Virus record (IMG/VR): IMGVR_UViG_2778261152_000005
Coordinates: 1-57,958 of that record
Strand: one strand, 5' to 3'
Origin: a virus
Taxonomy: Duplodnaviria > Heunggongvirae > Uroviricota > Caudoviricetes
Length of the DNA: 57,958 nt
Position numbers and translations under genes: made by a program. The notes beneath the pieces were generated by a model that did no database searches, had not been told where the DNA came from, and saw only the letters and a program-made list of their open reading frames with translations. This document shows, piece by piece, positions 10,485 to 56,884 of the stretch. How positions within the stretch are numbered: position 1 is the stretch's first letter; every line of letters starts with the position of its first letter.

Positions 10485-10542
10485 TATTTTTCCTTTTTCG
10501 AATATTTTTCATTGGGCGCTTATACATACGCCCGTCATTTTA

Positions 10543-10926: not shown

Positions 10927-11061
10927 TTTCCCTCTTTTTATGTGGATTATAAAAACTTGATGCCATTGTTACAATGAATATCGCCATAAATGCATTTGCC
11001 ATATGTATTGCCCGATCTGTTGTTATTGATTGTTTGTGATGTTATAAATCATTTATTCTCC

Positions 11062-11655: not shown

Positions 11656-11684
11656 GCTCTACGGCGCTACTATGGTGATAAAAA

Positions 11685-11855: not shown

Positions 11856-11876
11856 AGTTTTCTCCTTCTCCTGTTA

Positions 11877-12053: not shown

Positions 12054-12488
12054 TAATTAACCTCCTATTCTATTTGGTTAAAAGAAAAAACACCTTGCAA
12101 GCCTGACGGCTTCAAAGTGCATTGATTTTAATTATTTAGAGGATGGGAATGTTTTCCTGTCCTAATATTACTTTACCACGACTAAAGGCTTTTGTCAACC
12201 CGTAGTCGTAAAAATATTGATCTTTTTCAGTAAGTTATGATATTGCTTAACAATTCGTGCTCTTTTTCTTCCTTATTGTCTAAAACGCTCTAAAACGCCC
12301 TCTGACGAGGTTTTGATAAATACAATAATTCCCTTATGTAGAGGCTGTTTAGCTCGCCAGAGGCTTGATTTAAGCGGTAGAATCTCATCTACTACCTAAC
12401 ATCTTTAAACCATATTTTTCTTTTTTGTCTGTTTGATGGTTGATCTATAGTTATGCGTTAGCATCCCCAAAGGGGTAACGCTACTCTA

Positions 12489-12869
12489 ATTGCATTCGCC
12501 AGAACATTGCACAAGAAATTTATTTTAGATGATTGATGATCGTTAGATTGGCGTAAGCCTCATCAATGGAACTATTGAAGCGCACAGCGCATAGACACTA
12601 ACAACCATTCGCTTACGCTCAGGTTATTGCACAAGTAAATTTCAATCGTTAGATGGTAGTTAGTTAATTATCGTTCTGCGCACAGCGCAAGACTATTTAG
12701 CCTTACGCAAGCCGTAGGCTATTTGCACATAGTAGATTACATATTCGTTGTGAGCGGCATTAGCGAACATAGATCTACTAACTAACATCAACAAACAAAA
12801 ACTATGTGTTATGACAAGCAGTCTAACGACTAACACTCTAACTTGTGCAAGGTTCTGGCGAATGCCAAT
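12489..12869. repeat. Repeat-rich 381-bp segment bounded by 27-bp inverted repeats
   Basis: ATTGCATTCGCCAGAACATTGCACAAG at 12489-12515 and its near-perfect inverted copy at 12842-12869; interior has two roughly 110-bp tandem units with TCGTTAGAT, GCGCACAGCGCA and TTGCACA motifs. Confidence 0.5.
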
Positions 12870-12981
12870 AGATTAAGGGATAGTCAAGGACTCCCCTAAC
12901 GGGTATCCCTATAATTATTCTTTAAAGATAAAAGAATTTATAAAAGATAATTTAATTGTAGTTTTATAGTTGATCTAATAG

Positions 12982-13118
12982 GTAACAAAATTCTGTAGGG
13001 GTGGCTAACAGTTTTCTGTGGGGGTGTCTAACATAATTCTGTTAGGGTTGGGGTAACAGTTTTCTGTTAGGGTGCATATTTCTTTAAAAGTTAAGGATAA
13101 CAGAATTCTGTGGGGGTA
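12982..13118. promoter_or_regulatory. Iteron array (5 copies of AACAnnwTTCTGTnGGGGT), putative origin or Rep-binding region
   Basis: Four tandem copies at about 23-bp spacing plus one spaced copy, followed by AT-rich DNA. Confidence 0.55.
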
Positions 13119-13671
13119 GTTCACAGTGACCTACCGTTATTACCGATGTGTAATATCGTTACATCCATTTATCACATAACATCTGTGCAATGATCTTCTT
13201 ATAAGTTGTAAAAGTGTTTCTTGCTATCAAAAATTAAACATCTAAAACAGGCTTAAATTCAAGATTAATTGATGATTAATCCCTGTGTAATTCCATACTA
13301 AAAAATTTAATGAAAAGTAGCTTAAAAGAGCAATGTTAGCTTTCTTCACTTTTACATCACTTTCGCAAAGCCTTGTGTAATGCGGCTTACAGAGCACTAT
13401 CAGAAATTGTTGATTAAAAATCAATCTATTATCTGTCGAACAAGTTTTCTTTAATGCAACAAAAAATTAATTTTTTCAAAATAAACACGCTATTTAATAG
13501 CTTGCTAATTTTACCAAAACATAACTACACGATTCTCATGCAAGACGTGTAGTGATAAAGCAGGCTAAATCACCACACTAAAAACCTTCGAATTTCGTAG
13601 TGAAAAAAGTCCTTTACACACCTAATCAACACGATCAATAATCACTACACACAAATCAACACAGAAGGAAA

Positions 13672-40377: not shown

Positions 40378-41072
40378 TGCAAATCACCAAAGAACAAGTA
40401 AAAGCCTGGCATGCCTGTACTGATGGCTTCCGCTGGTTTCTGGATAAATTCCCGCAGGGCGGTGCGTATGCCGATGTGCATGGTGCACTGATCGCCGATA
40501 AGCGTTTCGATGACGCGCGCTGGCTGGTCGATAAGATGTACCGCACGCATCTGGATAAAGCTGAATTCATTCAGGCTGAAACTGCTACGACCGACAAAAT
40601 GGTCGGTGAACTCACCAGCATGGAACTTCCATCTGATCAGGAAGAGGGTGAGAACAGCTCCGGCAACTACGCCCGAATCGGCAGCTCCGGCTACGACGCC
40701 CGAATCGGCAGCTCCGGCTACGACGCCCGAATCGGCAGCTCCGGCAACTACGCCCGAATCGGCAGCTCCGGCTACGACGCCCGAATCGGCAGCTCCGGCG
40801 ACGACGCCCAAATCGGCAGCTCCGGCAACTACGCCCGAATCGGCAGCTCCGGCTACAACGCCCAAATCACCGCATCAGGTAAAGGCTCCGTTGTGGCTTG
40901 TGCCGGTAGCGTGCAGCGCATTGTTCTGGGCGAAAACGGCTGTGCATCAGTGCCGTGGCACGACGGGAAACGAACCCGCATTGCAGTGGCTTACGTCGGC
41001 GAGAACGGCATTGAAGCAAACGCCCCATATTACGTGAACGACGAAGGCCAGTTCGTCAAGGTTGAGGATTAA
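40377..41072 (+). CDS. Protein with eight in-frame tandem nonapeptide repeats (SSGYDARIG-type)
   Basis: 231-aa ORF; 27-bp tandem repeat at 40656-40871 encodes SSGNYARIG/SSGYDARIG/SSGDDAQIG units. Confidence 0.55.
   Translation: MQITKEQVKAWHACTDGFRWFLDKFPQGGAYADVHGALIADKRFDDARWLVDKMYRTHLDKAEFIQAETATTDKMVGELTSMELPSDQEEGENSSGNYARIGSSGYDARIGSSGYDARIGSSGNYARIGSSGYDARIGSSGDDAQIGSSGNYARIGSSGYNAQITASGKGSVVACAGSVQRIVLGENGCASVPWHDGKRTRIAVAYVGENGIEANAPYYVNDEGQFVKVED
40656..40871. repeat. 8 x 27-bp near-perfect tandem repeat inside a coding sequence
   Basis: Unit AGCTCCGGC(TAC/AAC)(GAC/TAC)GCCCGAATCGGC repeated head-to-tail in frame. Confidence 0.85.
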
Positions 41073-41075
41073 TCC

Positions 41076-42011
41076 ATGAGCTTAGAAGCAAATCTCGAAC
41101 TTAACAACAAACTGCTGACGCAGCAGAACGAGCTGCAGGTGCGTAATATCGCTCTGCTGGAACAACTGGTGCAGTCCCTGACCTCTGGTGCATCACTGAG
41201 CGCCAGCACACCATTGCAGGTGCAGGAGTACCACGAATCAGCATCGGATACGGCCAAAGAGCAGACAAAAGCGCTGACGCTGGACGATCTGCAGTTTAGT
41301 GATGTTATCGCGATGGCCGGCTTCTACCCGGTGGCTAAACCTATTACCGCAGAAATGCTGCAACGCGCTATCGATTACCGCGATGCTGAAGGCGATAAGC
41401 GAGTCGTACAAATTGACGCTCTGGATTGCGCTTTGCAAGGGGTGAAGCGTGCAAAAGAACTCCATCAGCCCGCGCTGCTGGATCTCTCCCGTCATATTCT
41501 TAGTTGTTGGGACGATTTACCCACTATCGAATCCCGTCGTGACTTTGCCGAACGACTGCTGAATACGCCAAACGGCGAAAGGCATACGGTTCAGCCGAAA
41601 AAGGTCAACGGAAAAGGCCAACAAGCAGAAGAACGCTCCGGGCCGTTCTACTGCAAGAACGCCGATGGTTCCGCCGCCAGCGAACTCCATACCTTACGCA
41701 AGCTGAACGAGCTGCTTAAAAAGGGCCATATCGAGATCAACCGCGTTGAGTATCTCCAACTGCAGGAAGAATTCGCGCGTAAAGATGCAGCAAACAGCGG
41801 TAAGGATAAAGACGCCGGAACGGATGATACTCCTGATTTTTCTGCACTGCGTAAACAGGCTGAAGGGTTGATCCTCCAGTTGGCGAAGGGTGGTTACCGT
41901 GCCGAGGCTGTGGCGATTCTGGAGAAACAGGGAGCCAAAAAACTCGGCGAAGTTGCTGACGAGAATCTCGCAGACGTTATCGCTCAGGCTGAAAAAGCAC
42001 TGGAGGGTTAA
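41076..42011 (+). CDS. Hypothetical protein with N-terminal coiled-coil (311 aa)
   Basis: ORF closely packed with neighbouring genes. Confidence 0.45.
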
Positions 42012-42013
42012 TT

Positions 42014-43315
42014 ATGCCAGACGTTCACGCACGACTTTCACCGTCTTCAGCGCATCGGTGGATGCGTTGCCCCGGTAGCCTGGCGCTGGAAGCCACTCAG
42101 CCAGACAAAGAAACGTCCTTCGCTTTAGAAGGTACCGCAGCGCATTCGCTTGCCGAAAAGGTGCTGCGCAACCGCCAGAATCACCCGGAACACTATGCGG
42201 GTTGCAATGTAGCGATGTTTCTCGGTTCTTATCCTCTTGCCGAGCTCCCGGATGATACTTCCAGCCCGCAGGTAGATGAGGAAATGGTCGAAGCCGTTGG
42301 CCGTTACGTCGACACCGTCTGGACGCTGTCGCAGGGTCATGAGCTCCTGGTCGAGCAGCGTGTCGACTTCTCCCACATCGTGGGGGTCGAAGAATCATTC
42401 GGCACCGCTGACGGCGTAATCATCGCAGGTAACGAGCTGCAGATCCACGACCTGAAATATGGTAAGGGTGTGCGGGTCGATGCCGAGCAGAACGAGCAGC
42501 TGCAGCTCTATGCTCTGGGCGCGCTTGAGCAGTTCAGCATGCTGTACGACTTTGAAACGGTGCGTCTGTTCATCCACCAGCCACGACTTAACCACGTTTC
42601 AGAGTGGGCGCTGACGGTGGAAGAACTCCAGGCGTTCGGCGAACGGGCGCAGGAAGCGGCGGCTAATGTGATCGTGATGTTCAACATTGCCGATTGCGAA
42701 GGCGTCGAAACCCTGCCGCTGGAAAACTTCACTCCTGGTGAAAAACAGTGCCGGTTCTGCAAAGCCAAAGCCGTCTGCACTGCACAGAAAATGCAGCACA
42801 TGCAAACAGCTGCCGGCGAATTCGAAGATCTGACAAAACCGGTTAGCGAAATCGTCACTGATGCCAGCTCACGCGTACCACTACTCACCATAGAGGAACT
42901 GGCGGAGATCTACAGCCAGGCCGACGCTATCGAATCATGGCTAAAGGCTGTGCGCGACCGGGTGAACAGTGAGCTGAACGCCGGGCATCCGGTACCGGGC
43001 TTTAAGCTGGTTACTGGCAAACAGGGCAATCGTGCCTGGAGCGATGAAGAAGCCGCCCGCGCGCTGCTGAAAGACCAGTTCCGTTATAAAACTGAGGAGG
43101 TTTTCGACCTTAAGCTGATTAGCCCAACCAAAGCCGAGAAGCTCATCAAAAAGGCCAGCCCTCGCCGCTGGACAAAGGTCGAAGCGCTGATCACTCGCGC
43201 TGACGGAAAGCCCTCCGTTGCACCTGAATCCGACCCGCGCCCTGCGCTAAATATCAACCCTGTTAACGATTTCGACGACTTGTCCGACGACGCGCTCGCC
43301 GCAGACCTCATCTGA
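42014..43315 (+). CDS. DUF2800-like PD-(D/E)xK (Cas4/RecB-like) nuclease
   Basis: N-terminal …[15 protein letters not shown]… signature and C-terminal Cys cluster (…[10 protein letters not shown]…). Confidence 0.6.
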
Positions 43316-43330
43316 TTAAGGAACGACTCC

Positions 43331-43879
43331 ATGAAAATTAAACTGAACAATGTCCGCCTGGCCTTCCCTGCTCTGTTTGAAGCAAAAACCGTGAACGGCG
43401 AAGGCGACCCGCGCTTCTCTGCTGTTTTCCTGATGGATCCGAAACATCCGCAACTGGATGAAGTCCGCAAAGCGCTTAAGCAGGTGGCGAAGGAAAAATG
43501 GGGTGAGAAGTGGGAAACCATTTACAACCAGCTGGAGAAAAAGCTCAACCTCTGCCTGCATGACGGTGACGAGAAAGCCGAATACGAAGGCTTCCCGGGT
43601 AACTTCTTCCTGAACGCTGCCAACAAAGCGCGCCCGGCGGTTATCGATCGCGACCGTTCTCCGCTAATCCAGGCTGATGGCCGTCCTTACGCCGGTTGCT
43701 ACGTCAACGCGGTGATCGACATCTGGGCGCAGGACAACAACTTCGGCAAACGTGTTAACGCATCGCTGGGTGGAGTCCAGTTCCTGCGCGACGGTGACGC
43801 CTTCGCTGGCGGCGGTGTTGCTGCCCCTGACGACTTCGACGACATCAGTGAAGGCGCTGACGCCGACGCACTTATTTAA
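43331..43879 (+). CDS. DUF2815-like phage ssDNA-binding protein
   Basis: MKIKLNNVRLAFPALFEAKTVNGEGDPRFSAVFL… pattern; paired with DUF2800 and PolA genes. Confidence 0.55.
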   Translation: MKIKLNNVRLAFPALFEAKTVNGEGDPRFSAVFLMDPKHPQLDEVRKALKQVAKEKWGEKWETIYNQLEKKLNLCLHDGDEKAEYEGFPGNFFLNAANKARPAVIDRDRSPLIQADGRPYAGCYVNAVIDIWAQDNNFGKRVNASLGGVQFLRDGDAFAGGGVAAPDDFDDISEGADADALI

Positions 43880-43912
43880 CCCAATCCATCTCTGACTCAC
43901 CTAGGACTGAAT

Positions 43913-44056
43913 ATGGACAATTACACGCTAACTGAAGACCAGGCAATCGCGCTACGAAACTTTATCGGGGAGTACTGGACCGATTTCCTTCAGAGCACCA
44001 GCTTAACAGAAGCGGAAGCCGAAACCCTTTACGAAGCCCTCGGCGGCGAAAACTAA
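43913..44056 (+). CDS. Hypothetical small protein (47 aa, not in ORF track)
   Basis: ATG with AGGA upstream, in the gap between the DUF2815 and polymerase genes. Confidence 0.25.
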
Positions 44057-44132
44057 TCCACACCCACCCGGCCATGCGCCGGGTGTTTTGCAAAGAGCCT
44101 CCCTTTTCGCAAAGCACCCGCGAGGAATATCT

Positions 44133-46199
44133 ATGCCTGAAACCATTCTCTGGGGCGACCTGGAAACCTATTGCGAGATACCCATCACGAACGGCACGCA
44201 CGCTTATGCGGAAGGTGTCGAAGTGATGTTGTTTGCCTGGGCCATCGGCGACGAGCCGGTTAGCGTCTGGGATCTGATTGCTGGCGAACCTATCCCCAGC
44301 AGGCTGCGGAAGGCCATTGCCGATCCCGACACTCTGCTTTATTTCCACAATTCACATTTTGACCGTACGGTGCTGCGCCATGCAATGCCGGAGCTGGCGC
44401 CGGACGTTACCCGCTGGCACGACACGATGGTGCAGGCGCTGGCGCACAGCCTCCCCGGCGCGCTGGGGGCACTCTGTGAGGTGCTGGGCGTACCGCAGGA
44501 CAAGGCGAAGGACAAAGAAGGTAAAGCACTGATTCAGCTGTTCTGTAAGCCACGTCCGAAGAACAGCAAGCTGCGCCGCGCAACCAGCAAAACGCACCCG
44601 GTAGAGTGGCAGAGGTTCGTTGCCTACGCCGGGCTGGATATCGAGGCGATGCGCGAAGTTTATAAGCGGCTACCGAAGTGGAACTATCAGGGCGCCGAGC
44701 TGGCGTTATGGCATCGTGACCAGCGGATCAACGACCGCGGCGTATGCATGGATGTGCAGCTCGCACAGGCCGCCATCGAAGCGGTAGACCTTGAACAGAA
44801 AAGGCTGGCAAAGCGCACGCAGGTGATGACCGACGGCGAAGTACAGGCGGCCACACAGCGCGATGCGATGATTAAGCACATTGTCGAATCGTACGGCGTC
44901 GAGCTGCCGGATATGCAGCGCAGCACGCTGGAACGTCGCATCGCCGACCCTGACCTGCCGTCACCGGTGAAAGAGCTGCTGGCTATCCGCCTGCAGGCCA
45001 GCACCACGAGCACCAGTAAGTACAAATCGCTGATGAAGGGTATCAGCAGCGACGGGCGTCTGCGCGGTACGCTGCAATTCTGCGGCGCATCGCGTACCGG
45101 GCGCTGGGCCGGGCGGTTATTCCAGCCCCAGAACCTGCCCCGCCCGACGCTTGAGCAGGAACGCATCGATGAAGGCATCGAGGCGCTTAAATCCGGCTGC
45201 GCCGATCTGCTTTTCGATAATGTCATGGAGCTGACCAGTTCGGCGCTGCGCGGTTGCATTATGGCGCCGGCGGGTAAAAAGCTGGTTGTATCTGACCTGT
45301 CGAACATCGAAGGCCGAAAGCTGGCCTGGCTTGCCGGTGAGCAGTGGAAACTTGACGCATTCCGGCAGTACGACGAGGGCACTGGCCCCGACCTTTATAA
45401 GCTGGCCTACGCCAAAGCATTCAACATCACCCCGGAAGAAGTGACCAAATATCAGCGCCAGATAGGCAAGGTGATGGAACTGGGCCTCGGGTTTGGTGGA
45501 GGTGTCGCGGCGTTCCTGACCTTCGCACTGGTTTACGGCCTCGATCTTGAGGAACTGGCAACCGCAGCGCTGCCGAATATCCCGCGCGATGTGCGGCGCG
45601 AGGCTCAGAGCTGGTATGACGAATCGGTTAAACGCAAAGCGACGTATGGGCTATCGGAGCGCGTATTCATCGCTTGCGATTCGCTTAAGCGCCTGTGGCG
45701 CCGGGCACACCCGAAAACCTGCGATTTCTGGTACCAACTCGAGCGCACTGTCCGTGCCGCTATTGTCACCCCTAAGAAAACACTCTATTGCGGCTATCTG
45801 AAAGTGCGCCGCGATGGCGCATGGCTGCGTATCCAGTTGCCGTCCGGGCGCGCACTCTGCTACCCGTCGCCGTCGATTGAGAAAGGAAATATCACCTACA
45901 TGGGGATTAACTCCTACTCGCGGAAATGGCAACGGCTCAAAACCTACGGCGGAAAGCTGGTCGAAAACGTAACACAGGCCGCCGCCCGCGACGTTCTGGC
46001 CGGGAACATGCCGCTGATCGAGGATGCCGGTTACAGCATTGTGCTGACGGTACACGATGAAGTGATCACCGAAGCGCCGGACACTGACGATTTCAACGAT
46101 AAAGCACTCTCCGCGCTGCTCTCCACTAACCCCGAATGGGCGCCCGATATCCCGCTGAACGCTGGCGGCTTCGAGGCGTATCACTACCGTAAGGATTAA
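44133..46199 (+). CDS. Family A DNA polymerase (3'-5' exonuclease plus polymerase)
   Basis: Start at ATG 44133 with GAGGA upstream; N-terminal exonuclease-like …[11 protein letters not shown]… and later …HDEVITEAP…; track ORF begins at 44088. Confidence 0.7.
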
Positions 46200-46204
46200 T
46201 CGCT

Positions 46205-46417
46205 ATGGCACAAGGTAACGTAGAAAATTTCGCAATCATTGTGTTAGTCAACGGCCGCACATCACAGGTCGAACTAACAACATCGCAAAAACGTTTGTTC
46301 GCAAAGTTAACACTCGGCGCGCTCAACGATAGTGGCCCTCTGAAACTTATGCCAATCGACGACATGGTCCAGTTACAACCCGACACCGAAGCATTTTCAG
46401 ACGGTGATCCGCTATGA
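46205..46417 (+). CDS. Hypothetical small protein
   Basis: Tightly packed; stop overlaps next start. Confidence 0.4.
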   Translation: MAQGNVENFAIIVLVNGRTSQVELTTSQKRLFAKLTLGALNDSGPLKLMPIDDMVQLQPDTEAFSDGDPL

Positions 46418-46626
46418 AATTCATTTTTATGGTGATGGATAGTCGTGCGCAGTTCGATATCGACAGCGCCGCCATTCTGGAATGCTGCGGCGATAAACAA
46501 CCCACCTGGCGCACTCTGCGCAGAGACTGGGGTGATCAGGGCGCAGTTCTGGTCCGCTTTCGTCTGGTACCAAACACTAACAGCGAAGTCGCTACCGACC
46601 CCGAAGTTGTCGGCACCATCAACTGA
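46414..46626 (+). CDS. Hypothetical small protein
   Basis: Overlapping start/stop with the upstream gene. Confidence 0.4.
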   Translation: MKFIFMVMDSRAQFDIDSAAILECCGDKQPTWRTLRRDWGDQGAVLVRFRLVPNTNSEVATDPEVVGTIN

Positions 46627-46637
46627 GGTAACCCCCT

Positions 46638-46856
46638 ATGGCATTTAAGTATCGGGACAGTCCGCTTTATTACCGGACTGCGCGGGAGGCTTTGCGCCTT
46701 GAGCAGTCCGGCGAGTATGACCGGGCGGCAAAAGTCTGGGCCAAAGCAAACCGCGAATCACGTAACGAACTGAATCAGGACTGGAGCGAACGCCGGTCTG
46801 ATTTTTGCCTGATGCAGAACATGCGCGAAAAGCGTAAGGCGGTGGACGATGCCTAA
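46638..46856 (+). CDS. Hypothetical small protein
   Basis: ORF overlapping the next gene start. Confidence 0.4.
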   Translation: MAFKYRDSPLYYRTAREALRLEQSGEYDRAAKVWAKANRESRNELNQDWSERRSDFCLMQNMREKRKAVDDA

Positions 46857-47043
46857 CATCGACAACAAGGGGTGGGGTTTTCCCGCTCTGTCGAAAAAAG
46901 CGCATTTCTTTAATTCGGGGGAAGCCATATCACTATGCGGTAAATGGATGTTCACCGGCATCAGGATTGATGAATGGCATGAACACCCTGAGAACTGCGC
47001 TACCTGCATGAAGAAACGCAAAAAACAGGAAGGCGAAAAATAA
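46849..47043 (+). CDS. Hypothetical small Cys-containing protein (possible zinc ribbon)
   Basis: …SLCGKW…ENCATCMKK…. Confidence 0.4.
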   Translation: MPNIDNKGWGFPALSKKAHFFNSGEAISLCGKWMFTGIRIDEWHEHPENCATCMKKRKKQEGEK

Positions 47044-47312
47044 TGGCTTACGAACGTGAAAGCCTCATCGAAAAGCACCTCGTCGCCGAAGTGAAAAAGT
47101 CTGGCGGGGTCGCCTTTAAGTTCGTTTCACCCGGTCGCCGCTCGGTACCGGATCGCATTGTCCTGCTACCCGGCGGCCGCCTCGTTTTCGTTGAATGCAA
47201 AGCACCCGGCAAAGCACCACGCGCCGACCAGCTGCGCGAGCACGAACGATTGCGCGCGCTGGGCTTTACCGTGGTGGTGTTGGATAGCAAAAATCTGGAG
47301 GGGATATTGTGA
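47043..47312 (+). CDS. VRR-NUC domain nuclease
   Basis: …SVPDRIVLLPGGRLVFVECKAPGKAPRADQLREHERLRALGFTVVVL… carries the PD-(D/E)xK D…E-C-K arrangement typical of VRR-NUC. Confidence 0.65.
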   Translation: MAYERESLIEKHLVAEVKKSGGVAFKFVSPGRRSVPDRIVLLPGGRLVFVECKAPGKAPRADQLREHERLRALGFTVVVLDSKNLEGIL

Positions 47313-47815
47313 ATCTTCCGGCCATTCTCGACATGTGCTGCGGTTCTCGTATGTTTTGGTTTAACAAAAGCGACCCGCGCGCCGTGTATTTGGATGCCCG
47401 TAGCGAGTCACACGTGCTTTGCGATAACAGGAAGTTGGAGATTCGCCCGGACGTACTCGGTGATTTCAGACAGTTGCCATTTGCCGACGGTCAATTTTTA
47501 CAGGTGATATACGATCCCCCTCATCTGCGCCGCGCCGGGCCTAACGGCTGGATGCGAAAAAAGTATGGCCAGTTGGATAAAGAGAACTGGCGTGAAGATC
47601 TTCGCGCAGGATTCGCAGAAGCATTTCGCGTGCTGGCACCCGGCGGCACGTTAATTTTCAAATGGAATGCTACGCAGATCCCTGTCCGCCAAATTATAGA
47701 ATTAACCGACCAGCAACCTACTATCTGGCAACGCACTGGCAAAGCAGATAAAACCCACTGGATAGTATTTTTAAAAGCCGTAGAGGGGTACCAGAACGGA
47801 TATGACCTCATCTAA
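47309..47815 (+). CDS. Putative small DNA methyltransferase (DPPH motif)
   Basis: …LDMCCGSRMFW… then …VIYDPPHLRR…; unusually short (168 aa), so assignment is tentative. Confidence 0.45.
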   Translation: MNLPAILDMCCGSRMFWFNKSDPRAVYLDARSESHVLCDNRKLEIRPDVLGDFRQLPFADGQFLQVIYDPPHLRRAGPNGWMRKKYGQLDKENWREDLRAGFAEAFRVLAPGGTLIFKWNATQIPVRQIIELTDQQPTIWQRTGKADKTHWIVFLKAVEGYQNGYDLI

Positions 47816-49202
47816 AATTTTCACCCCCCGCCCTTATCAAGACCTCATCATCAACCACGAAATCGACATCCTGCGCTGCAACATCTGGGCGGGCATGGGC
47901 ATGGGTAAAACCGTGGCGACGCTCACCACGCTGGAAGATCTCTTTATGGCGGGCGCAGAGACTCAGCCCGCGCTGGTTCTCGCGCCGCTGCGCGTGGCGG
48001 CCAGCACCTGGCCGGATGAAGCGGTTAAATGGGGGCATCTGCGCAATATCGAGGTACAGCCGATTGTTGGTAATGCCAAAGCGCGCGCGGCAGCGCTGGC
48101 GAACAGCAACGCCAGCGTGTTTACCATCAACTACGACAATCTGGTCTGGCTGGTGGAAGAACTGGGCGGCCGCTGGCCGTTCGGTACCGTTATCCCCGAC
48201 GAAAGCACCCGGCTGAAATCCTTCCGGCTGCGCGGTGGCGGTAAGCGCGCGGCGGCGCTGGGCAAAGTGGCACATAAACATATCCGACGCTGGATGAATC
48301 TCACTGGTACGCCAGCGCCAAACGGCCTGGTGGATTTGTGGGGGCAGGCGTGGTTTGTGGATCAGGGGCAGCGCCTCGGGCGAACTTACGGCGCGTTTAC
48401 CTCCCGCTGGTTCAACTCAATACAGTTTCCGGGGCAGAGCTGGACGAAGCTGGAACCGTTCACCCATTCGCAGGACGAAATACAGCGGGCACTGGCCGAC
48501 GTCACTATCTCCCTGGACGCCGCCGACTGGTTCGATATCAAAGAGCCTATCCATAACGTGATCCGCGTAGACATGCCGCCGAAGGCTCGCCAGCAGTATC
48601 GTGAAATGGAAAAGGAAATGTTCCTCGAGCTGAACGGCGAAGGCATCGAAGCGCCTAACGCCGCGGCAAAAACGGTGAAGTGTCTGCAAATCGCCAGCGG
48701 CGCGGTGTACACCGACGACGCCGGGAGCTGGTCAGAACTGCACGACGCGAAGCTGCAGGCGCTGGACAGTATTCTCACCGAAGCAGCTGGCGCGCCGGTA
48801 CTGGTGGCCTACCACTGGAAACACGACCTCGAGCGTTTGCTTAAAGCATTCCCTCGCGGTCGCCACCTCGACCAGGATCCACAGACGCTGCGCGACTGGA
48901 ACGCCGGAAAGATACCGGTTCTGTTCGCACACCCGGCCAGCGCAGGCCACGGCCTGAATATGCAGGACGGTGGCAACATATTGGTGTTTTTCTCGCACTG
49001 GTGGGACCTGGAACAGTACCAGCAAATTATCGAACGCATCGGTCCAACCCGGCAGATTCAGGCCGGACACAACCGCCCGGTGTTCATTCACCACATTATC
49101 GTCGCCGACACTATGGACGAAATGGTGATGGAACGCCGCAACTCAAAACGAACAGTGCAGGACATCCTGCTCGATGCCATGAAAAAGAGAGGTATAGCAT
49201 GA
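47802..49202 (+). CDS. SNF2-family superfamily-2 helicase
   Basis: …GMGMGKTVATL… Walker A and …VIPDESTRLK… DExx box. Confidence 0.7.
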   Translation: MTSSKIFTPRPYQDLIINHEIDILRCNIWAGMGMGKTVATLTTLEDLFMAGAETQPALVLAPLRVAASTWPDEAVKWGHLRNIEVQPIVGNAKARAAALANSNASVFTINYDNLVWLVEELGGRWPFGTVIPDESTRLKSFRLRGGGKRAAALGKVAHKHIRRWMNLTGTPAPNGLVDLWGQAWFVDQGQRLGRTYGAFTSRWFNSIQFPGQSWTKLEPFTHSQDEIQRALADVTISLDAADWFDIKEPIHNVIRVDMPPKARQQYREMEKEMFLELNGEGIEAPNAAAKTVKCLQIASGAVYTDDAGSWSELHDAKLQALDSILTEAAGAPVLVAYHWKHDLERLLKAFPRGRHLDQDPQTLRDWNAGKIPVLFAHPASAGHGLNMQDGGNILVFFSHWWDLEQYQQIIERIGPTRQIQAGHNRPVFIHHIIVADTMDEMVMERRNSKRTVQDILLDAMKKRGIA

Positions 49203-49387
49203 CACCGGTTATCTCTGACACTGACCTGATTAACATCAAAGAGGTTGAGCGCTCTGTTGGCCTGAAAAAATCCAGCATTTATGAGCGCATCAGTAATAAC
49301 GAGTTTCCGAAGCCTAAGAAGCTCGGGAGCCGAACCTCCCGCTGGGTACGCGGCGAGGTCGAAGAGTGGAAAAAACAGTTTCTTTAA
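49199..49387 (+). CDS. AlpA-family transcriptional regulator / excisionase
   Basis: 62 aa, …LINIKEVERSVGLKKSSIYERISNNEFPKPKKLGSRTSRWVRGEVEEW…; convergent with the integrase. Confidence 0.7.
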   Translation: MTPVISDTDLINIKEVERSVGLKKSSIYERISNNEFPKPKKLGSRTSRWVRGEVEEWKKQFL

Positions 49388-50646
49388 ATCAAACGAAGCT
49401 GGTCAATATAATCCGCATACCACTGCATCATTTCCCGACGCCCTTCCATATACAGGGCATGGTTATAAACCCCGCGTATATTGTTCTTGTCCACGTGGGC
49501 GATCTGGAGTTCAACCCAGTCAGAGTTGAATCCTTTATCGTTCAGGATAGTGCTGAACGTATGCCGGAAGCCATGCCCTACTACCCTCCCCTTATACCCC
49601 AGCGTGTGGATCATCCTGTTTATTGTGTTCTCGCTCATGACCTTTGACGGGTCATTCCTGCCGGGGAACATATTCACGTATCGACCTGTCAGCCCGTGCA
49701 GTTCTTTTAGCAAGACGACAAGCTGATCGGAAAGAGGTACCAGGTGCGGGCGGTCCATCTTCATAAATTCGGCGGGTATCTCCCACAGCCGATTATCGAA
49801 ATCTACCCATTCCCATTTTGAATGCCGCAGTTCGTAAGTACGCAGCCCCGCCAGCATCATGATCTGCAACCCCAGCCGGGGCAGCGGGCTCCCCTTGTAA
49901 CTCTCAAGCGCCGCGAGAAAATCAGGCAGTTCCTCCGCCGTCAGGAACGGGAAGGACTCTCCTTTATGCCCGGTCATTGCGCTATTCAGTTCGCTGACGG
50001 GGTTATACTTCGCGCGCCCAGTCGCAACTGCATAGCTGAATACTTCACCGCACCACCGGCGCGTTTTGGCTGCTTTCTCGGTTGCGCCGCGATTCTCAAT
50101 TTTGCGCAGTGCCCTCAGCATCTGGACAGGCTCGATTTCAGCAACTGGCAGCTTACCCACCGCTGGGAAAATATCTTTGTTGAATGCTTCGAGAATGTCA
50201 GAGGCATAGCCAGGCGACCAGCGCGGCTTCTTGAATTCATGCCATTCTATCGCGATCTCTTTTAACGTGATCGTCTTTACTGCCGCAGCTGCGGCATGGC
50301 TTTTGACTTTTACCGGGTCAACACCTGCCGCAACGTTACGCCGGGCCTCGTCGCGTTTTTCGCGAGCGGCCGCCAGCGAAACAGCCGGGTATACCCCGAG
50401 CGCCAGCATCTTTTCTTTACCGGCGAAAGTATAGCGATAGCGCCAGTATTTTGCCCCGCTGGTTTTCACCAGCAGGATAAGCCCGTTGCCGTCTGGCAGC
50501 TTATAGTCTTTCTCGGCAGGCTTTGCCGTCTCGACCTGTCGCGCGTTTAGTTTCATAGGTACCCGCCTCAAACTCAGATACCCGATTATGTACCCGTTTT
50601 TAATTTGGATTGCAACGGCAAAAGGTGGATTATGGCGGACAAACAA
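49384..50646 (-). CDS. P4-type tyrosine integrase
   Basis: 420 aa; N-terminal arm-binding pattern (…LPDGNGLILLVKTSGAKYWRYRYTFAGKEKMLALGVYP…) and C-terminal …GHGFRHTFST…; next to the tRNA-Thr 3' fragment. Confidence 0.85.
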   Translation of the reverse strand: MFVRHNPPFAVAIQIKNGYIIGYLSLRRVPMKLNARQVETAKPAEKDYKLPDGNGLILLVKTSGAKYWRYRYTFAGKEKMLALGVYPAVSLAAAREKRDEARRNVAAGVDPVKVKSHAAAAAVKTITLKEIAIEWHEFKKPRWSPGYASDILEAFNKDIFPAVGKLPVAEIEPVQMLRALRKIENRGATEKAAKTRRWCGEVFSYAVATGRAKYNPVSELNSAMTGHKGESFPFLTAEELPDFLAALESYKGSPLPRLGLQIMMLAGLRTYELRHSKWEWVDFDNRLWEIPAEFMKMDRPHLVPLSDQLVVLLKELHGLTGRYVNMFPGRNDPSKVMSENTINRMIHTLGYKGRVVGHGFRHTFSTILNDKGFNSDWVELQIAHVDKNNIRGVYNHALYMEGRREMMQWYADYIDQLRLI

Positions 50647-50709
50647 AACGCCTAATATGGCGAATTTAAAGGAAAAATGGAGGACTAAGGATGTTAGCGG
50701 ATTAAAAAA

Positions 50710-50975: not shown

Positions 50976-51149
50976 TTGTACTCCTCATGGGCAATCAGCA
51001 GTCCTCAGAGTAATGGAATGGCAGAAAGGTTCGTGAAAACGATGAAGGAAGACTACATCGCGTTCATGCCGAAACCGAATGTAAGAACGGCATTGCATAA
51101 TCTTGCAGTGGCGATCGAACATTACAATGAAAACCATCCGCACAGTGCG
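50976..51149 (+). pseudogene. IS3-family (IS2-like) transposase C-terminal remnant, cut by IS1
   Basis: …[51 protein letters not shown] parallels the IS2 OrfB C-terminus from memory; the frame runs straight into the IS1 left end. Confidence 0.6.
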
Positions 51150-51204
51150 GGTAATGCTGCCAACTTACTGATTTAGTGTATGATGGTGATTTTAAGGTGC
51201 TTGC

Positions 51205-51480
51205 GTGGCTTCCATTTCCATCAGATGTCCTTCCTGCTCCGCTACTGAAGGCGTGGTGCGTAACGGCAAAAGCACTGCCGGACATCAGCGCTATCTCTGC
51301 TCTCATTGCCGTAAAACATGGCAACTACAGTTCACTTACACCGCCTCTCAGCCCGGTAAGCACCAGAAAATCATTGATATGGCCATGAATGGCGTCGGAT
51401 GTCGCGCCAGTGCACGCATTATGGGCGTTGGCCTCAACACGGTTTTACGTCACTTAAAAAACTCAGGCCGCAGTCGGTAA
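51205..51480 (+). CDS. insA: IS1 InsA
   Basis: 91 aa, [43 protein letters not shown]…; A6C slippery site near its 3' end. Confidence 0.9.
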
Positions 51481-51902
51481 CCTCGCGCATACAACCGGGC
51501 AGTGATGTGATTGTCTGCGCTGAAATGGACGAACAGTGGGGCTACGTCGGTGCTAAATCACGTCAGCGCTGGCTGTTTTACGCGTATGACAGGATACGGA
51601 GGACGGTTGTGGCGCACGTCTTCGGTGAACGCACTCTGGCCACACTGGAGCGTCTTCTGAGCCTGCTGTCGGCCTTTGAGGTCGTGGTATGGATGACGGA
51701 TGGCTGGCCGCTGTATGAATCACGCCTGAAGGGAAAGCTGCACGTTATCAGCAAGCGTTATACTCAGCGCATTGAGCGACATAATCTGAATCTGAGACAA
51801 CATCTGGCAAGGCTGGGACGGAAGTCACTGTCGTTCTCAAAATCGGTGGAGTTGCATGACAAGGTCATCGGGCATTATCTGAACATAAAACACTATCAGT
51901 AA
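51399..51902 (+). CDS. insB: IS1 InsB frame (expressed as InsAB' by -1 frameshift)
   Basis: …[33 protein letters not shown]…[46 protein letters not shown]…. Confidence 0.85.
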
Positions 51903-52236
51903 GTTGGAGTCATTACCGTACTCTCCTTGGAGTATGAAGACGTTACTCACTTTAAGATTAGCATCCTCAAACCACTGTGAATTTGCTCCCATACGGAAAG
52001 AGGTGACTCAGACCTACAAAAATTTGTCAGGCCCGAAGGGTATCTTGCGCCAGCATAAAATACTGGATATAACCTAACTATTCATTTTAGCAATAGCCAT
52101 TGCTTACGAGAGCTAGCTAATCTACGTAAATGCTAGGCATAACAGTGTCTTTAAAAGATATAGGTGGAATAAGTTCTGAAGTATGAGTGCTCTTCTTTTT
52201 CATCTATTCGTAATCAAAATGTGGATGTGATTGTTA

Positions 52237-55200
52237 ATGACAAATAAAAAAAATTTGAGTAATCCTTTTTCTACAGGCGGAGGCGGTGTTCATTTTGAAG
52301 CACATGTCCAAGCGTCTTTTGTTGCTCTAATGCTAACAGGCGGTAATGCACCTTGTCTTCCTTGTTGGCCCATAGTGGAGATAAATCTCCAGGGCAAGAT
52401 TGATGGTTTTGATACCGACGACTTGATCGTCGTTGTTAAAGATTTCAACAGCAATGAAAAACGGAAGCTATTAGGACAAATAAAGCATTCTATTTCATTT
52501 ACGCAAGGTAATGCGATACTTGGGGAAGTTATACAGGCTGCTTGGAACGATTTCAACAATCCTGACTTGTTTACCAAGAACAAGGATGTTATTGCACTGA
52601 TCACCGGTCCGCTCAGTTCGACCGATACACACAATGTGCTCTGGTTATTGAATCAGGCTAGACACACAAAAACAGTCGATGAATTTTTGAGGAACGTTCA
52701 AAAAGCCAAGTTCAGCCCGCCTAAAAGTACTGAGAAACTGGAGGCCATCCAGTTTCATCTGAAGATGGCAAACAGTGGGAACGATTTAACAAACGATGAG
52801 CTTTATGACTTTTTGAACCATTTCCATTTACTAGGGTACGATCTGGGTAATGAATCAGGCGTCGTCCTTTCTTTGCTGCACTCCCACATAGCGCAATTCC
52901 ATCAACAGTATCCTCAGTGGGTTTGGTCGCGGATAGTTGATATCGTACAAACTTGGAATAAAGATGCTGGCACTATCATTTCAAGTAAGCTACCTGAAGA
53001 TCTTTTAGATGTTTTCAAACAAAGGGTTATTGCTGAAATACCTGAGAAGTTGAGGTTAGTACAACCGGTAGTCAAAACCGACTGGACTCACCACCCAGAT
53101 GCCTCTTATTTAGCCTTAGCAGTGTTGATTGGGCAATGGAATGATAAAAATGAGTGTGACCGAAATGTACTAACCCAATTGCTTGGTATCAGCTATGACG
53201 AATGGCTAAGGAAGGCTCGAGAGATTTTACATAGCCCAGACAGTCCTTTGTCCCTAAAAAACGGCATTTGGAAAGTAACAAATCGAATGGAGCTATGGAG
53301 TCTTCTTGGATCCCGCATTTTTGATCAGAATCTTGAATTGTTTAAGTCTTCCGCGATTTCCGTACTCAAAGAGCCAGACCCTGCTTTCGAATTACCTGCT
53401 GAAGAGCGTTACGCTGCTAGTATTCATGGTAAGGTGCTGAAGTTTTCATCCACGCTGCGACAAGGTATAGCAGAGGGTTTAGCCATAATCGGGAGTCGGC
53501 CAGAGGTTTGCGTTAACTGCTCTCAGGGGAATGCTGAAACTTCCGTTAACGTCGCAATACATACAATTTTGACTGATGCAAACTGGGTTTTATGGGGTAG
53601 CCTAAACGGTTTGCTACCAACTTTGGCTGAAGCAGCTCCTGCAAAATTTCTTGATGCAGTTGAGAAGGCAATGCGTCAGACTCCTTGTGTATTTGATGAG
53701 CTTTTTTCTCAAGAAGTAAATGGTATCACTGGTGGTAATTATCTGACAGGACTGCTATGGGCTCTAGAAGAATTAGCCTGGGATGAGCAATACCTAGTAC
53801 GCGTCTGTGTTGTACTGGCCGAACTTGCCAGCCACGATCCTGGGGGCAAGTGGGCTAATCGACCATCTAACTCGCTTACTACTATATTATTACCGTGGTT
53901 TCCGCAAACGCTGGCATCTATAGAAAAACGAAAAGTTGCAGTCAACGTCATCTTGCAGGAATGGCCTGACATTGCCTGGAATTTACTCGTCCAGCTTCTA
54001 CCCGGTCACCATCAAACCTCTTCTGGGTCACACAAGCCCTCTTGGCGCCGAATAATCCCAGATGATTGGGAAAGCAAAGTGACTAATCAGGATTACTGGT
54101 TGCAGACATCTTTTTATGCTGAGCTTGCCGTCAAAAACGCCGGAGAAGATATCGAACGCCTTACCTTGTTGATTGATAATTTTGATAGCCTTCCATCTCC
54201 TGCTTTCGAACATCTTCTTAAGCACCTCTCTTCGGAAACAATTAATTGTCTTAATGAAGAGCAGCGAGTTGTAATTTGGGATCATCTTCATCGATTCGCA
54301 AATAAACATCGGCGATTCTCTAATGCTAATTGGGCTTTACCTGATGATCTGCTGACCAAAATCGAAAATGTTGCCGAGCAACTGGCACCTACCAATCCAT
54401 TCAACTTATATCAGCACCTTTTTTCAAATCGAGATTTTGATCTTTACTTAGAAAATGGCGATTGGGAAGAACGGAGAAATAAACTCGAATCAAGGCGCGA
54501 ATCCGCAATATCAGAAATTCTTAGGCAAGATGGCGCAGAAGGCGTTATTCGATTTGCAGATCACGTTTCTGCGCCCCATCAAATAGGAAGTGTACTCGGC
54601 ACTATCAACGATGATGTGTTCGAAAAACTTCTTTTGCCCCGTTTCCTCAATACAAAAGAAAATAAGTATAAGGCATTGGTAAGCGCTTTTATTTGGAAGC
54701 GTTTCTATCTCAAAGGCTGGGAGTGGTTCGACAATCTGGATAAAGCTGACTGGACTCCTGAACAGTTAGGCCAATTCTTTGCTTATCTGCCTTTTAACAA
54801 GGAGACCTGGACCCGAATCTCTCATTATCCTCAAGCTTCCGAGAACGAATATTGGGCTCGCACCGATGCAAATCCTGACCTGGGTGAAGGTGATCTTACT
54901 AGTGCCATCGATAAGCTGATTGATCATGGCAGACCACTTGCGGCAATCAATTGCCTGTGCAGGATGCATCAGACAAAGCAGCCAATCGATACTGAACAGT
55001 GTATCCGCGCTTTGCTTGCTGCCACTTCAACTAACGAATCTAGCTCCAACATGGATGGTTACAACATAACTACCCTTATCCAATTTCTTCAGACTGATCC
55101 CAAAGTGAATCCGGATAATCTTTTTCAGATCGAGTGGGCTTACCTTCCATTGCTCGATGGTCACCAAGATGCTGTGCCTAAGTTCCTTGAGAATAAAATG

Positions 55201-55779
55201 GCTAATGATCCAGAATTTTTCTGCGAAGTAATCCAACTCATTTATCGTTCTGACAAAGAAGACAATATGACAAGTGAACCAACAGATGAATTGAAAGCAA
55301 TCGCAAAAAATGCCTGGACTCTTTTGTACAACTGGAAGACACCGCCAGGAAGCCAATCAAATGGGACGTTCAACGGAGAACGCTTTACTGAATGGCTTCA
55401 GAAAGTTAAGGAGGGTTCTACGGCATCAGGTCACCTGGACGTTGCACTCAGCAAAGTTGGTGAAGTCTTGATTTATACTCCCTCCGATCCGAATGGCTTG
55501 TGGATAAACCGAGAGGTCGCAGCTGCTCTCAACGATCGAGATGCTGAGAGTATGCGCAGGGGCTACATGACAGGAGCCTACAACTCACGAGGTGTTTATT
55601 GTGTTGATCCAACAGGAAAACCTGAGAGAGAGCTAGCTGACCAGTTCCGGGCAAAAGCAGAAGAAGTGGAAAACGCTGGTTTTCAGCGATTCGCCGTTAC
55701 CTTAAGAGATTTAGCGGTTGGCTATGACCACGAAGCTGCACAGGTTATCAGCAATCTAAATATTGGAGAGGATGATTAA
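52237..55779 (+). CDS. Large uncharacterised protein (about 1180 aa), candidate accessory or defence-island gene
   Basis: Single long ORF (track start is TTG at 52231; first ATG 52237); visibly AT-richer than surrounding DNA; no P-loop seen by eye; N-terminus …NPFSTGGGGVHFEAHVQASFVALMLTGG…GFDTDDLIVVVKD… unrecognised. Confidence 0.7.
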   Translation: MTNKKNLSNPFSTGGGGVHFEAHVQASFVALMLTGGNAPCLPCWPIVEINLQGKIDGFDTDDLIVVVKDFNSNEKRKLLGQIKHSISFTQGNAILGEVIQAAWNDFNNPDLFTKNKDVIALITGPLSSTDTHNVLWLLNQARHTKTVDEFLRNVQKAKFSPPKSTEKLEAIQFHLKMANSGNDLTNDELYDFLNHFHLLGYDLGNESGVVLSLLHSHIAQFHQQYPQWVWSRIVDIVQTWNKDAGTIISSKLPEDLLDVFKQRVIAEIPEKLRLVQPVVKTDWTHHPDASYLALAVLIGQWNDKNECDRNVLTQLLGISYDEWLRKAREILHSPDSPLSLKNGIWKVTNRMELWSLLGSRIFDQNLELFKSSAISVLKEPDPAFELPAEERYAASIHGKVLKFSSTLRQGIAEGLAIIGSRPEVCVNCSQGNAETSVNVAIHTILTDANWVLWGSLNGLLPTLAEAAPAKFLDAVEKAMRQTPCVFDELFSQEVNGITGGNYLTGLLWALEELAWDEQYLVRVCVVLAELASHDPGGKWANRPSNSLTTILLPWFPQTLASIEKRKVAVNVILQEWPDIAWNLLVQLLPGHHQTSSGSHKPSWRRIIPDDWESKVTNQDYWLQTSFYAELAVKNAGEDIERLTLLIDNFDSLPSPAFEHLLKHLSSETINCLNEEQRVVIWDHLHRFANKHRRFSNANWALPDDLLTKIENVAEQLAPTNPFNLYQHLFSNRDFDLYLENGDWEERRNKLESRRESAISEILRQDGAEGVIRFADHVSAPHQIGSVLGTINDDVFEKLLLPRFLNTKENKYKALVSAFIWKRFYLKGWEWFDNLDKADWTPEQLGQFFAYLPFNKETWTRISHYPQASENEYWARTDANPDLGEGDLTSAIDKLIDHGRPLAAINCLCRMHQTKQPIDTEQCIRALLAATSTNESSSNMDGYNITTLIQFLQTDPKVNPDNLFQIEWAYLPLLDGHQDAVPKFLENKMANDPEFFCEVIQLIYRSDKEDNMTSEPTDELKAIAKNAWTLLYNWKTPPGSQSNGTFNGERFTEWLQKVKEGSTASGHLDVALSKVGEVLIYTPSDPNGLWINREVAAALNDRDAESMRRGYMTGAYNSRGVYCVDPTGKPERELADQFRAKAEEVENAGFQRFAVTLRDLAVGYDHEAAQVISNLNIGEDD

Positions 55780-56338
55780 TCTAAACACCTAAATGTGGAG
55801 AAACTGGCTGTCAATCGATGTTCCTGTCACAGACAGCCAAGTTTTAGTTATTCGCTGATCTGCACTTAGTTGATGAATATAAACTCATCTTAGCAACGTA
55901 CCTCTCCCTCTTGATTAAAGGTAGCGTACATCGCCCCGTTGAACTCACAGTACTAACAGTCCTCGTGACAGTGGTTATCTGTGATGTAGAGTCTGTGGAG
56001 GCGGTTCAAATCCTCTCAGGCAAAAATATGTAAAATCGGTAGCAGCTGGAAATCATTCAATACTCGCACTATCGAAAGTTAGACAGCCAGCCGTGGCTCG
56101 TGCTTGCATACGACGTGCTGCGGTTTCATTTATCTCCGACCGGAAACTTCTTATACAGAGTCGATACGCCAACATCATAGATGATCGCCACCTTCTGGCG
56201 AGAAACTCCTGATGCAATTTGTCGTCCGGCCTGTGCCTATTGCTCCGGCGTGAGAGTAATACAGTAAACTGTAGAAAAAGCCCATTAAACCTAATATAAT
56301 AATAAGTTACAGAATTATCTTTACTGAATAATAGATAT

Positions 56339-56884
56339 ATGAATATTAGTGAACTTAAAAAGTGTATACACTATGAAGTAATAGGTTGTAAACGCCCTTT
56401 CTCCTGGCGAAAAGCAATTGTTCGCGCAATAAAACACAGAAGATCACGTTATTTATTTTGGTGGCGCGTAGCAAAATATCTTTTTGATAAAGGCGGATAC
56501 CGGCGAAAGATTGCAGGAAAAATAGAACGCTTCATTCTTGATAAATACAATGTAACCGTTCCCTTAACTGTAAATATTGGTAAAGGGTTCGACATATCTT
56601 ATCTCAATGGCGTTGTTATCGGTCACAAAGTTACAATAGGTGAAAATTGTTCAATTAAGCCTGGGGTAACTATTGGACTTCGCGGTGAATTTAATGATAT
56701 GGATATTGTCATAGGAAATAATGTAACCATTGGCTGTAACGCCACCATCCTTGGTGGCAAAGTGCATATAGGGAATAATGTAAAAATAGGAGCTCATGCA
56801 TTGGTACTGCATGACATTCCTGATGACTCCACATTCATTACCAAATTTCACTCTGAAATTATTTATAATTCATCTCACACATAA
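56339..56884 (+). CDS. Hexapeptide-repeat (left-handed beta-helix) acetyltransferase
   Basis: …VIGHKVTIGENCSIKPGVTIGLRG…IVIGNNVTIGCNATILGGKVHIGNNVKIGAHALVL… is a run of hexapeptide repeats; very AT-rich. Confidence 0.7.
   Translation: MNISELKKCIHYEVIGCKRPFSWRKAIVRAIKHRRSRYLFWWRVAKYLFDKGGYRRKIAGKIERFILDKYNVTVPLTVNIGKGFDISYLNGVVIGHKVTIGENCSIKPGVTIGLRGEFNDMDIVIGNNVTIGCNATILGGKVHIGNNVKIGAHALVLHDIPDDSTFITKFHSEIIYNSSHT

Follow-up and report, generated by a model that had tools for sequence, protein, structure and literature searches.

A prophage-borne gene for a probable single-protein immune receptor joins a predicted Cap4-type nuclease to a conserved helical-repeat body

The DNA analysed here, referred to throughout as the window, comprises 57,958 nucleotides of the IMG/VR virus record IMGVR_UViG_2778261152_000005 (Caudoviricetes) and carries, between an insertion sequence (IS) and a prophage tail-fibre module, a gene whose product of 1,180 amino acids (aa) is the query of all comparisons below. 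A single long open reading frame (ORF) occupies the locus at 52231..55779 on the plus strand; the ATG at 52237 is favoured over the TTG at 52231 as its start, because the N-termini of homologues read M-x3-KKLSNPFSTGGGG in the alignment. The identical RefSeq protein, WP_000182525, is labelled 'hypothetical protein'. To the left lies a complete IS1 (51150-51917) with 23-nt terminal inverted repeats; to the right follow, in order, a Pin-invertase remnant, a hexapeptide acetyltransferase gene, a tail-fibre assembly gene (Caudo_TAP) and a tail-fibre gene. GC content is 0.38-0.40 just upstream, 0.42-0.46 within the gene and 0.50-0.61 in the DNA further left. An earlier note on this DNA, made from its letters, had described a single 3.5-kb gene for 1,180 aa with an AT-rich upstream region, a lower GC content than its neighbours and a position between IS1 and a tail-fibre module. 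All of this is borne out, the position by the flanking genes and the lower GC content against the DNA to the left, as is the remark that no Walker A motif is present: a search of all 1,180 aa of the query for this motif found none. The gene and its predicted parts are as follows:

52045..52073, plus strand: candidate sigma-70 promoter TTGCGC-17-TATAAC, read from the sequence, below the consensus-scan threshold and weak evidence
52237..55779, plus strand: complete coding sequence, 1,180 aa plus stop, 133.6 kDa, pI 5.2
52285..52605, plus strand: predicted PD-(D/E)xK nuclease core, aa 17-123, alpha-beta-beta-beta-alpha-beta, from predicted fold and conserved residues
52297-52299, plus strand: putative catalytic E21, glutamate of helix 1
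52420-52422, plus strand: putative catalytic D62, start of the second strand
52477-52479, plus strand: putative catalytic Q81, third strand
52483-52485, plus strand: putative catalytic K83, third strand
52606..53016, plus strand: aa 124-260, helices that extend the nuclease module and belong to the cassette it shares with Avs3, Cap4 and LmuA
53017..53151, plus strand: variable low-confidence linker, aa 261-305
53152..53316, plus strand: winged-helix-like element, aa 306-360 (helix, helix, beta-hairpin, helix), with W345 invariant
53317..55776, plus strand: HEAT/ARM-like alpha-solenoid body, aa 361-1180, the scaffold that defines the family, with a proposed role as sensor/regulator
53743..53916, plus strand: most conserved body segment, aa 503-560, tGLLWALE.LAW ... 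DPGG.W.NRP.NSL..ILLPW.PQT.A
55426..55626, plus strand: second conserved body segment, aa 1064-1130, SGHL.VAL..G.VL..P.DP.GLWI..VA..LN..R.G..NSRGV..VDP.G..E

The N-terminal module (N-module) has the predicted fold of a nuclease. An AlphaFold2 model of the first 310 aa has a mean predicted local distance difference test score (pLDDT) of 83.8, and its residues 17-123 follow the order of elements in the PD-(D/E)xK core, namely helix, strand, strand, strand, helix, strand. Across an N-module alignment of 58 sequences, 51-74% identical to the query, G36, P39, Q52, G53, D62, Q81, K83, W103 and D105 are invariant, and E21 (at least 90% conserved), D61 and H84 nearly so. The putative catalytic residues fit the model, E21 lying in helix 1, D62 where the second strand begins and Q81-x-K83 in the third strand. 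Structure comparison of the N-module gave 14.0 / 239 for SeAvs3, 11.3 / 183 for Lamassu LmuA and 8.1 / 188 for a second LmuA, 11.1 and 10.9 / 216 and 209 for two entries of CBASS Cap4, and 8.8 / 209 for Hachiman HamA; ordinary restriction endonucleases reached at most 7 / about 110, over the core only. The full-length model gives the same ranking, and Foldseek matched the DNA-bound LmuA nuclease tetramer at a probability of 1.00. On grounds of fold and motif, the N-module is thus predicted to be a Cap4-type PD-(D/E)xK nuclease; since no Pfam threshold is reached, the assignment draws on the predicted structure and the conserved residues. Such nucleases are reported to be widespread in immune systems, where they are fused to diverse regulatory C-terminal domains; the related DUF4297 nuclease requires D41, E59 and K61 (a D-x18-ExK triad) for activity, and Cap4 is reported to depend on oligomerisation for its activation (bioRxiv 10.1101/2024.10.24.620088). 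The earlier note had proposed a nucleotidyltransferase- or nuclease-like effector at the N-terminus, pointing to GGGG and DTDDLIVVVKD, which are indeed present at aa 14-17 and 59-69. The nuclease part of that proposal gains support from fold and conserved residues, and the nucleotidyltransferase reading is rejected, as neither fold nor motifs speak for it.

The nuclease module is followed by a linker (aa 261-305), where pLDDT drops to 54-60 at aa 261-280 and where entropy among close homologues is the highest in the protein, the C-terminal tail excepted. One member (P0245, 1,301 aa) has a Cap4-type N-module and a low-complexity insertion of ~100 aa in the linker ahead of the body; the linker therefore tolerates large insertions. 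Beyond the winged-helix-like element, the full-length model (mean pLDDT 84.5, predicted template modelling score 0.67) shows an all-alpha solenoid that runs uninterrupted to the C-terminus, in line with the long helical body anticipated in the earlier note. The body is acidic (pI 4.8-5.5) and in fold searches generically resembles protein-binding solenoids (karyopherins, CAND1, MMS19), with FANCI also among the Foldseek matches. In an alignment of 63 sequences at 34-51% identity, the two most conserved segments are aa 441-560 and 1064-1130. Within aa 503-560, where the entropy of close homologues is lowest, E511, P553 and W554 are invariant. The motif DPGG-x-W-x-NRP-x-NSL-xx-ILLPW-x-PQT (aa 534-560, 53836-53916) is the most conserved stretch of the whole protein, exceeding even the nuclease active site. 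So much conservation would not be usual in a plain repeat scaffold and may point to a specific pocket or interface. Residues 640-960 are somewhat more variable in close homologues (entropy about 0.8-1.1 vs 0.3-0.5), and no hypervariable patch is seen.

Natural gene arrangements divide the protein at the linker, which is where gene fission occurs and where alternative effectors join. Pseudomonas and Stenotrophomonas/Xanthomonas encode the N-module on its own, as a protein of 303-321 aa whose gene overlaps by 11 nt that of an 861-879-aa body protein, itself 48-55% identical to query residues about 308-1176 (N-module and body genes at 10001-13541 in locus L007, and likewise at 10001-13541 in L009 and L010). 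The fission points differ between the two groups, lying at ~aa 305 in Stenotrophomonas and ~aa 317 in Pseudomonas, which suggests that the genes were split independently. Many other members align to the query only from aa 253-292 onward and begin with a different effector. By Pfam with gathering cut-offs, eight effector families are found above the cut-off on proteins sharing the body: SIR2_2 (P0307, 1,248 aa; 42.9 bits), GT4-conflict (P0314; 269.9 bits), Metallophos (P0350; 35.3 bits), SLFN_AlbA_2 (P0327; 75.7 bits), DUF4062 (P0343; 67.6 bits), PNP_UDP_1 (P0279; 63.3 bits), FRG (P0316; 74.8 bits) and Abi_C (P0354; 41.3 bits). TIR_2 (P0345; 27.3 bits) falls just under its cut-off of 28. PADLOC assigns the alternative N-termini to short-pAgo SIR2, CBASS effectors and the PDC-S15, PDC-S60 and PDC-S65 candidates, and none of its models matches the body. 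Among the best 150 representatives, about three quarters bear the Cap4-type module; another N-terminus is present in at least 24, and 14 consist of the body alone. The naturally split genes and the other N-termini on the same body are two independent lines showing nuclease and body to be separable modules that work together.

A body-only member of 931 aa, 39% identical to the query and with no fused effector, is encoded at 7902-10697 of the IMG/VR locus L020 (also in L021-L025). The surroundings are those of a myovirus-like prophage (tail sheath, small terminase), and neighbouring genes encode an N6/N4 DNA methylase and a DUF2971 protein.

In design, the protein comes closest to DSR1/DSR2 and Avs3, and falls outside both by the features that define them. 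Avs3 (SeAvs3, PDB 8dgc) shares with the query the layout of nuclease cassette and repeat sensor. Avs proteins, however, are defined by a central nucleoside triphosphatase (NTPase) of the STAND class, whereas the query has neither a Walker A motif nor an NTPase domain by Pfam, NCBIfam or the model, and PDB sequence searches show no similarity between it and the Avs sensor. With DSR1/DSR2 the query shares the logic of one gene, an N-terminal effector, a helical C-terminal region of ~900 aa and no NTPase, and the SIR2-bearing family member P0307 has the same overall layout. The C-terminal region of DSR2 is reported to be a HEAT-repeat sensor, with activity triggered by a phage tail tube protein (PMC11263360). 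The effector of DSR1/DSR2 is a SIR2 NADase, whereas that of the query is a predicted nuclease. Homology is not detected: the PADLOC Dsr models match neither the query nor P0307, Vibrio DSR1 is negative against the family in BLASTP and reaches an hhalign probability of 0.1%, and no DSR structure is among the fold-search matches listed.

Systems that share the nuclease differ in how it is regulated. CBASS Cap4 (PDB 7yib, 6vm6) is a nuclease-SAVED effector, whereas the query has no SAVED domain and no Pfam Cap4_nuclease match, and no CD-NTase or other signalling gene stands beside it or its homologues in the loci examined. Lamassu LmuA (PDB 9ux8, 9hqx, 9hr5) needs the SMC-like LmuB (and LmuC), none of which is encoded near the query or its homologues; the regulator of the query is instead a covalently fused solenoid, and the partner in the split forms is the solenoid body, not an SMC protein. 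A helicase of the Hachiman HamB type is not adjacent at any locus examined. Upx (1,212 aa, PDB 9wuf) is likewise a single defence protein of ~1,200 aa with PD-(D/E)xK domains and no STAND NTPase, and is reported to sense phage terminase (bioRxiv 10.64898/2026.04.30.721860). Identity with Upx is rejected, since the domain order differs and the match is limited to the nuclease core; ARMADA II, an unrelated helicase/methylase system, is rejected as well. The family is therefore best described as a new sensor family, or scaffold, inside a known design logic.

The gene is rare in Escherichia coli and the family is large. Megablast found it in 8 of 5,426 complete E. coli genomes, each copy at least 99.8% identical and annotated 'hypothetical protein' throughout (WP_000182525 or WP_044867624). 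A word-indexed protein search returned 1,902 matches, the best 120 of which are all ~1,180 aa long and 68-100% identical to the query; they come from Pectobacterium, Kosakonia, Serratia, Dickeya, Lonsdalea, Vibrio, Alloalcanivorax, Aliidiomarina, Microbulbifer, Chlorobium, a Planctomycetes metagenome-assembled genome (MAG) and Acidithiobacillus. An exhaustive phmmer search of 1.84 billion cluster representatives (clusters at 50% identity) recovered 6,663 proteins at E <= 1e-3, of which 3,112 reach E <= 1e-30, so that the earlier note's term 'orphan' is wrong for a protein rare in E. coli yet so numerous elsewhere. Homologues in different phyla retain 68-84% identity at a fixed length; together with the patchy distribution, this indicates recent horizontal transfer under strong purifying selection. 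N-terminal fragments were found in Geobacteraceae, Nitrospirota, Anaerolineae and a Methanosarcinaceae MAG. The last of these (P0161) is a partial protein of 431 aa from an archaeal MAG, 67% identical to the N-module; it may mean that the family reaches archaea, or that the bin is contaminated.

None of the family members found is a named protein. Pfam, NCBIfam and PADLOC have no match to the whole query or to any of four sub-segments, and PHROG 18693, of unknown function, matches aa 282-1168 only. Against all PDB sequences, the single sequence, the N-module profile and the family profile gave only matches at chance level. The accession was not found in the parts of the DefensePredictor supplements covered, and a domain-centric E. 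coli screen left out single-gene systems by design. The term 'undescribed' in the earlier note accordingly stands, in that no profile library names the family.

Homologues were examined at about 12 loci, a sample that describes contexts and is not a statistical enrichment. No partner or neighbour gene is conserved across them. The Kosakonia homologue shares an island with CbtA/CbeA, antirestriction and RadC genes and adjoins a Septu-like PtuA/PtuB pair and a Type I restriction-modification (R-M) system. In Vibrio parahaemolyticus (L005) the homologue (10001-13552) starts 222 bp downstream of a genuine DSR1 gene (5970-9779, 1,269 aa, E 3.7e-94) and in the same direction, with Menshen NsnA/NsnB 2-8 kb away. 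The SIR2_2 gene at this locus was considered as a paralogue and rejected, being a genuine DSR1 with an hhalign probability of 0.1% to the family; two architecturally analogous, non-homologous single-gene systems thus stand there in tandem. The Alloalcanivorax homologue is downstream of guaA with SymE, Fic and HsdR, and that of Dickeya is near CcdAB, ArdC and a type II-A retron (reverse transcriptase E 6.9e-119, nucleoside deoxyribosyltransferase E 2.5e-83). In Microbulbifer the gene is within a P4-like island, and in Stenotrophomonas it is found at the edge of an integrative and conjugative element (ICE) with a type IV secretion system, or downstream of guaA. In IMG/VR, 15 loci were found among 2.9 million viral contigs, several of them at contig ends; prophage ends are among the locations there, as in E. 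coli. Known defence genes therefore do recur beside homologues (DSR1, Menshen, Septu-like, Type I R-M, retron), as do toxin-antitoxin genes, and the family resides in defence islands or as mobile-element cargo next to known systems, a location that marks the anti-phage class. A second mark of that class, the modular exchange of effectors on a constant scaffold, is also seen in the domain composition of family members.

In E. coli the gene is prophage cargo. A complete lambda-like prophage (portal to J, Lom, stf, tfa) carries it immediately behind stf-tfa in strains A28 and VTB97432v, with an IS element on the other side of the gene; we read this site as equivalent to the cargo position in the b region of lambda. 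What the strains share starts at ~52052 and holds this gene alone, and DNA to the right of ~55830 is present also in genomes that lack the gene. No direct or inverted repeats that would signal mobility of its own were found flanking the gene. A rare 3.8-kb cargo segment at lambdoid prophage ends in E. coli is thereby explained.

Taken together, these data make it probable that the protein is an immune receptor with a Cap4-type nuclease effector: a single NTPase-free polypeptide that would act against phages or other mobile elements and that is prophage cargo here. The reading follows from the type of effector nuclease, the effector-swapping scaffold, the lack of an obligatory partner and the residence in defence islands and cargo positions. 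The single-gene defence or accessory candidate of the earlier note thus finds computational support in fold, cargo position, context and effector swaps, phage defence itself being what we infer from these. In the uninfected cell, the solenoid would hold the nuclease inactive. The body would then recognise a conserved infection cue; a phage protein is the likeliest candidate, ahead of a nucleic-acid structure or a disturbed host complex. Once the cue is bound, the receptor would change its conformation or oligomerise and so bring nuclease domains together, by analogy to Cap4, and the active nuclease would degrade DNA indiscriminately, stopping phage replication at the loss of the infected cell (abortive infection). 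For this specific mechanism of oligomerisation and abortive infection, which is drawn from analogy, we see the chances as finely balanced. The pairing of one body with chemically unrelated effectors speaks for a generic activation signal, such as proximity or oligomerisation, and against substrate targeting; because the body is strongly conserved and acidic, we favour a conserved protein ligand, of the phage or in a guarded host complex, over DNA.

A broader reading is more tentative still. The body, with its winged-helix-like head and its DPGG-W-NRP...LLPW-PQT core motif, might define an unrecognised and very widespread class of bacterial pattern-recognition receptors that work independently of NTP, fragments of which also occur in archaeal MAGs. 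One conserved scaffold would then detect a conserved cue and activate any of about ten unrelated effector chemistries, among them DNase, NADase, nucleosidase, RNase-like, phosphoesterase and glycosyltransferase, as an analogue of nucleotide-binding leucine-rich repeat (NLR) receptors and Avs without the nucleotide switch.

Several observations weigh against an immune receptor. The link of any family member to phage resistance is one that we infer, and neither a literature description nor a defence-system library entry was found for the family, subscription literature and the newest model sets lying outside the scope of that search. Even with E allowed to rise to 10, neither aa 1-150 nor aa 1-285 has a Pfam match. 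The conservation of the body is unusual for a sensor of fast-evolving phage proteins, only aa 640-960 being modestly variable, and it would fit equally well if the trigger were conserved, if a host guardee were bound, or if the role were enzymatic or structural. Two contexts (Pseudomonas L007, and L013) are not obviously defensive. A consensus scan of the 330 bp upstream of the gene found no promoter, and a promoter and terminator scan up- and downstream of it gave nothing convincing. A promoter of its own is thus not demonstrated for the gene, although the sub-threshold TTGCGC-17-TATAAC block is kept between the upstream regions of E. coli and Kosakonia, and in enterobacteria the gene is accompanied by ~190 bp of its upstream DNA.

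Other functions can be set against the same evidence. The high conservation of the body across phyla (68-84% identity at fixed length), its strongly conserved internal motifs with only modest variable regions, and its generic likeness to karyopherins, CAND1 and MMS19 are all features expected of a guard, in which the solenoid would bind a conserved host complex, such as the replication, transcription or translation machinery, and fire when a phage factor modifies or displaces that complex. The gene neighbourhood, however, implies no host partner, and frequent transfer between very different hosts, including the archaeal MAG fragment, would demand a universally conserved guardee; moreover, Avs sensors (PDB 8dgc) show that a direct trigger can also be a conserved phage fold. 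We consider such a guard unlikely. Also unlikely, and slightly more so, is a restriction enzyme that targets DNA directly, Type IV-like or structure-specific, whose winged helix and solenoid would bind foreign DNA (e.g. modified or replicating phage DNA) for the nuclease to cut selectively and without suicide. The winged-helix-like element after the nuclease module and the presence of FANCI, a DNA-binding solenoid, among the Foldseek matches agree with this. Yet the same body also bears SIR2, TIR-like, PNP, glycosyltransferase, Schlafen and metallophosphoesterase domains, as a trigger sensor would, its acidity (pI 4.8-5.5) is at odds with the proposal, and the top structural matches of the N-module are activated effector nucleases (Avs3, Cap4, LmuA), not restriction enzymes.

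The presence of the gene on prophages, ICEs and islands, the match to a PHROG family and the absence of phenotype reports would also suit a role outside immunity, either in the maintenance or competition of mobile elements or as a prophage DNA-processing enzyme, for instance in recombination or repair. A prophage enzyme of this kind is difficult to reconcile with a variable cargo position beside differing tail-fibre modules and flanking IS elements, with just 15 loci among 2.9 million viral contigs, or with the lack of any conserved phage-gene neighbour. The swapped effectors (SIR2, TIR-like, Abi_C, PNP, FRG, GT4-conflict) are the set used by immune and conflict systems, and the neighbours are defence systems, so that we regard a non-immune function as very improbable.

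If the immune receptor is confirmed, a large and taxonomically broad family, every member of which annotation pipelines now label 'hypothetical protein', joins the catalogue of bacterial immune receptors. An NTPase-free scaffold with many effectors would offer a clean system for studying how a helical-repeat sensor signals to an effector and which conserved feature of phage or host is read. The split two-gene forms are ready material for reconstitution, and the natural effector swaps suggest that the scaffold could be re-engineered.

The flanks of the gene record further rearrangement. IS1 interrupts the remnant of an IS3-family transposase (ORF 50976-51176), and in strain A28 the IS3-like ISSen4 occupies the side of the gene where the window has IS1. 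Given the IS3-family fragment in the window and ISSen4 on the same side in A28, an IS3-like element may have been the original neighbour of the gene. Two features on the right and one further to the left complete the locus:

56053-56255, minus strand: remnant of the pinE site-specific DNA invertase gene, helix-turn-helix C-terminal part only, with an internal stop in RefSeq
56339-56884, plus strand: hexapeptide-repeat acetyltransferase, 181 aa, 'serine acetyltransferase' in RefSeq, GC 0.35
49384-50646, minus strand: tyrosine integrase with an arm-DNA-binding domain, within the element at ~41000-50650

As pinE is only a remnant, the tail-fibre inversion switch beside the gene is degraded. The acetyltransferase gene sits between the Pin remnant and the tail-fibre assembly gene and is preceded by a good promoter-like site at 56272-56300; it is a second, unrelated cargo gene of the prophage end, and its product may modify surface polysaccharides. 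A search for tRNA genes across the whole window found none. The region at ~41000-50650 is a separate integrated element with a GC content of up to 0.61, which, besides the integrase, encodes a DUF2800/PD-(D/E)xK protein, a family A DNA polymerase, an SNF2-related helicase and an AlpA-like ORF.

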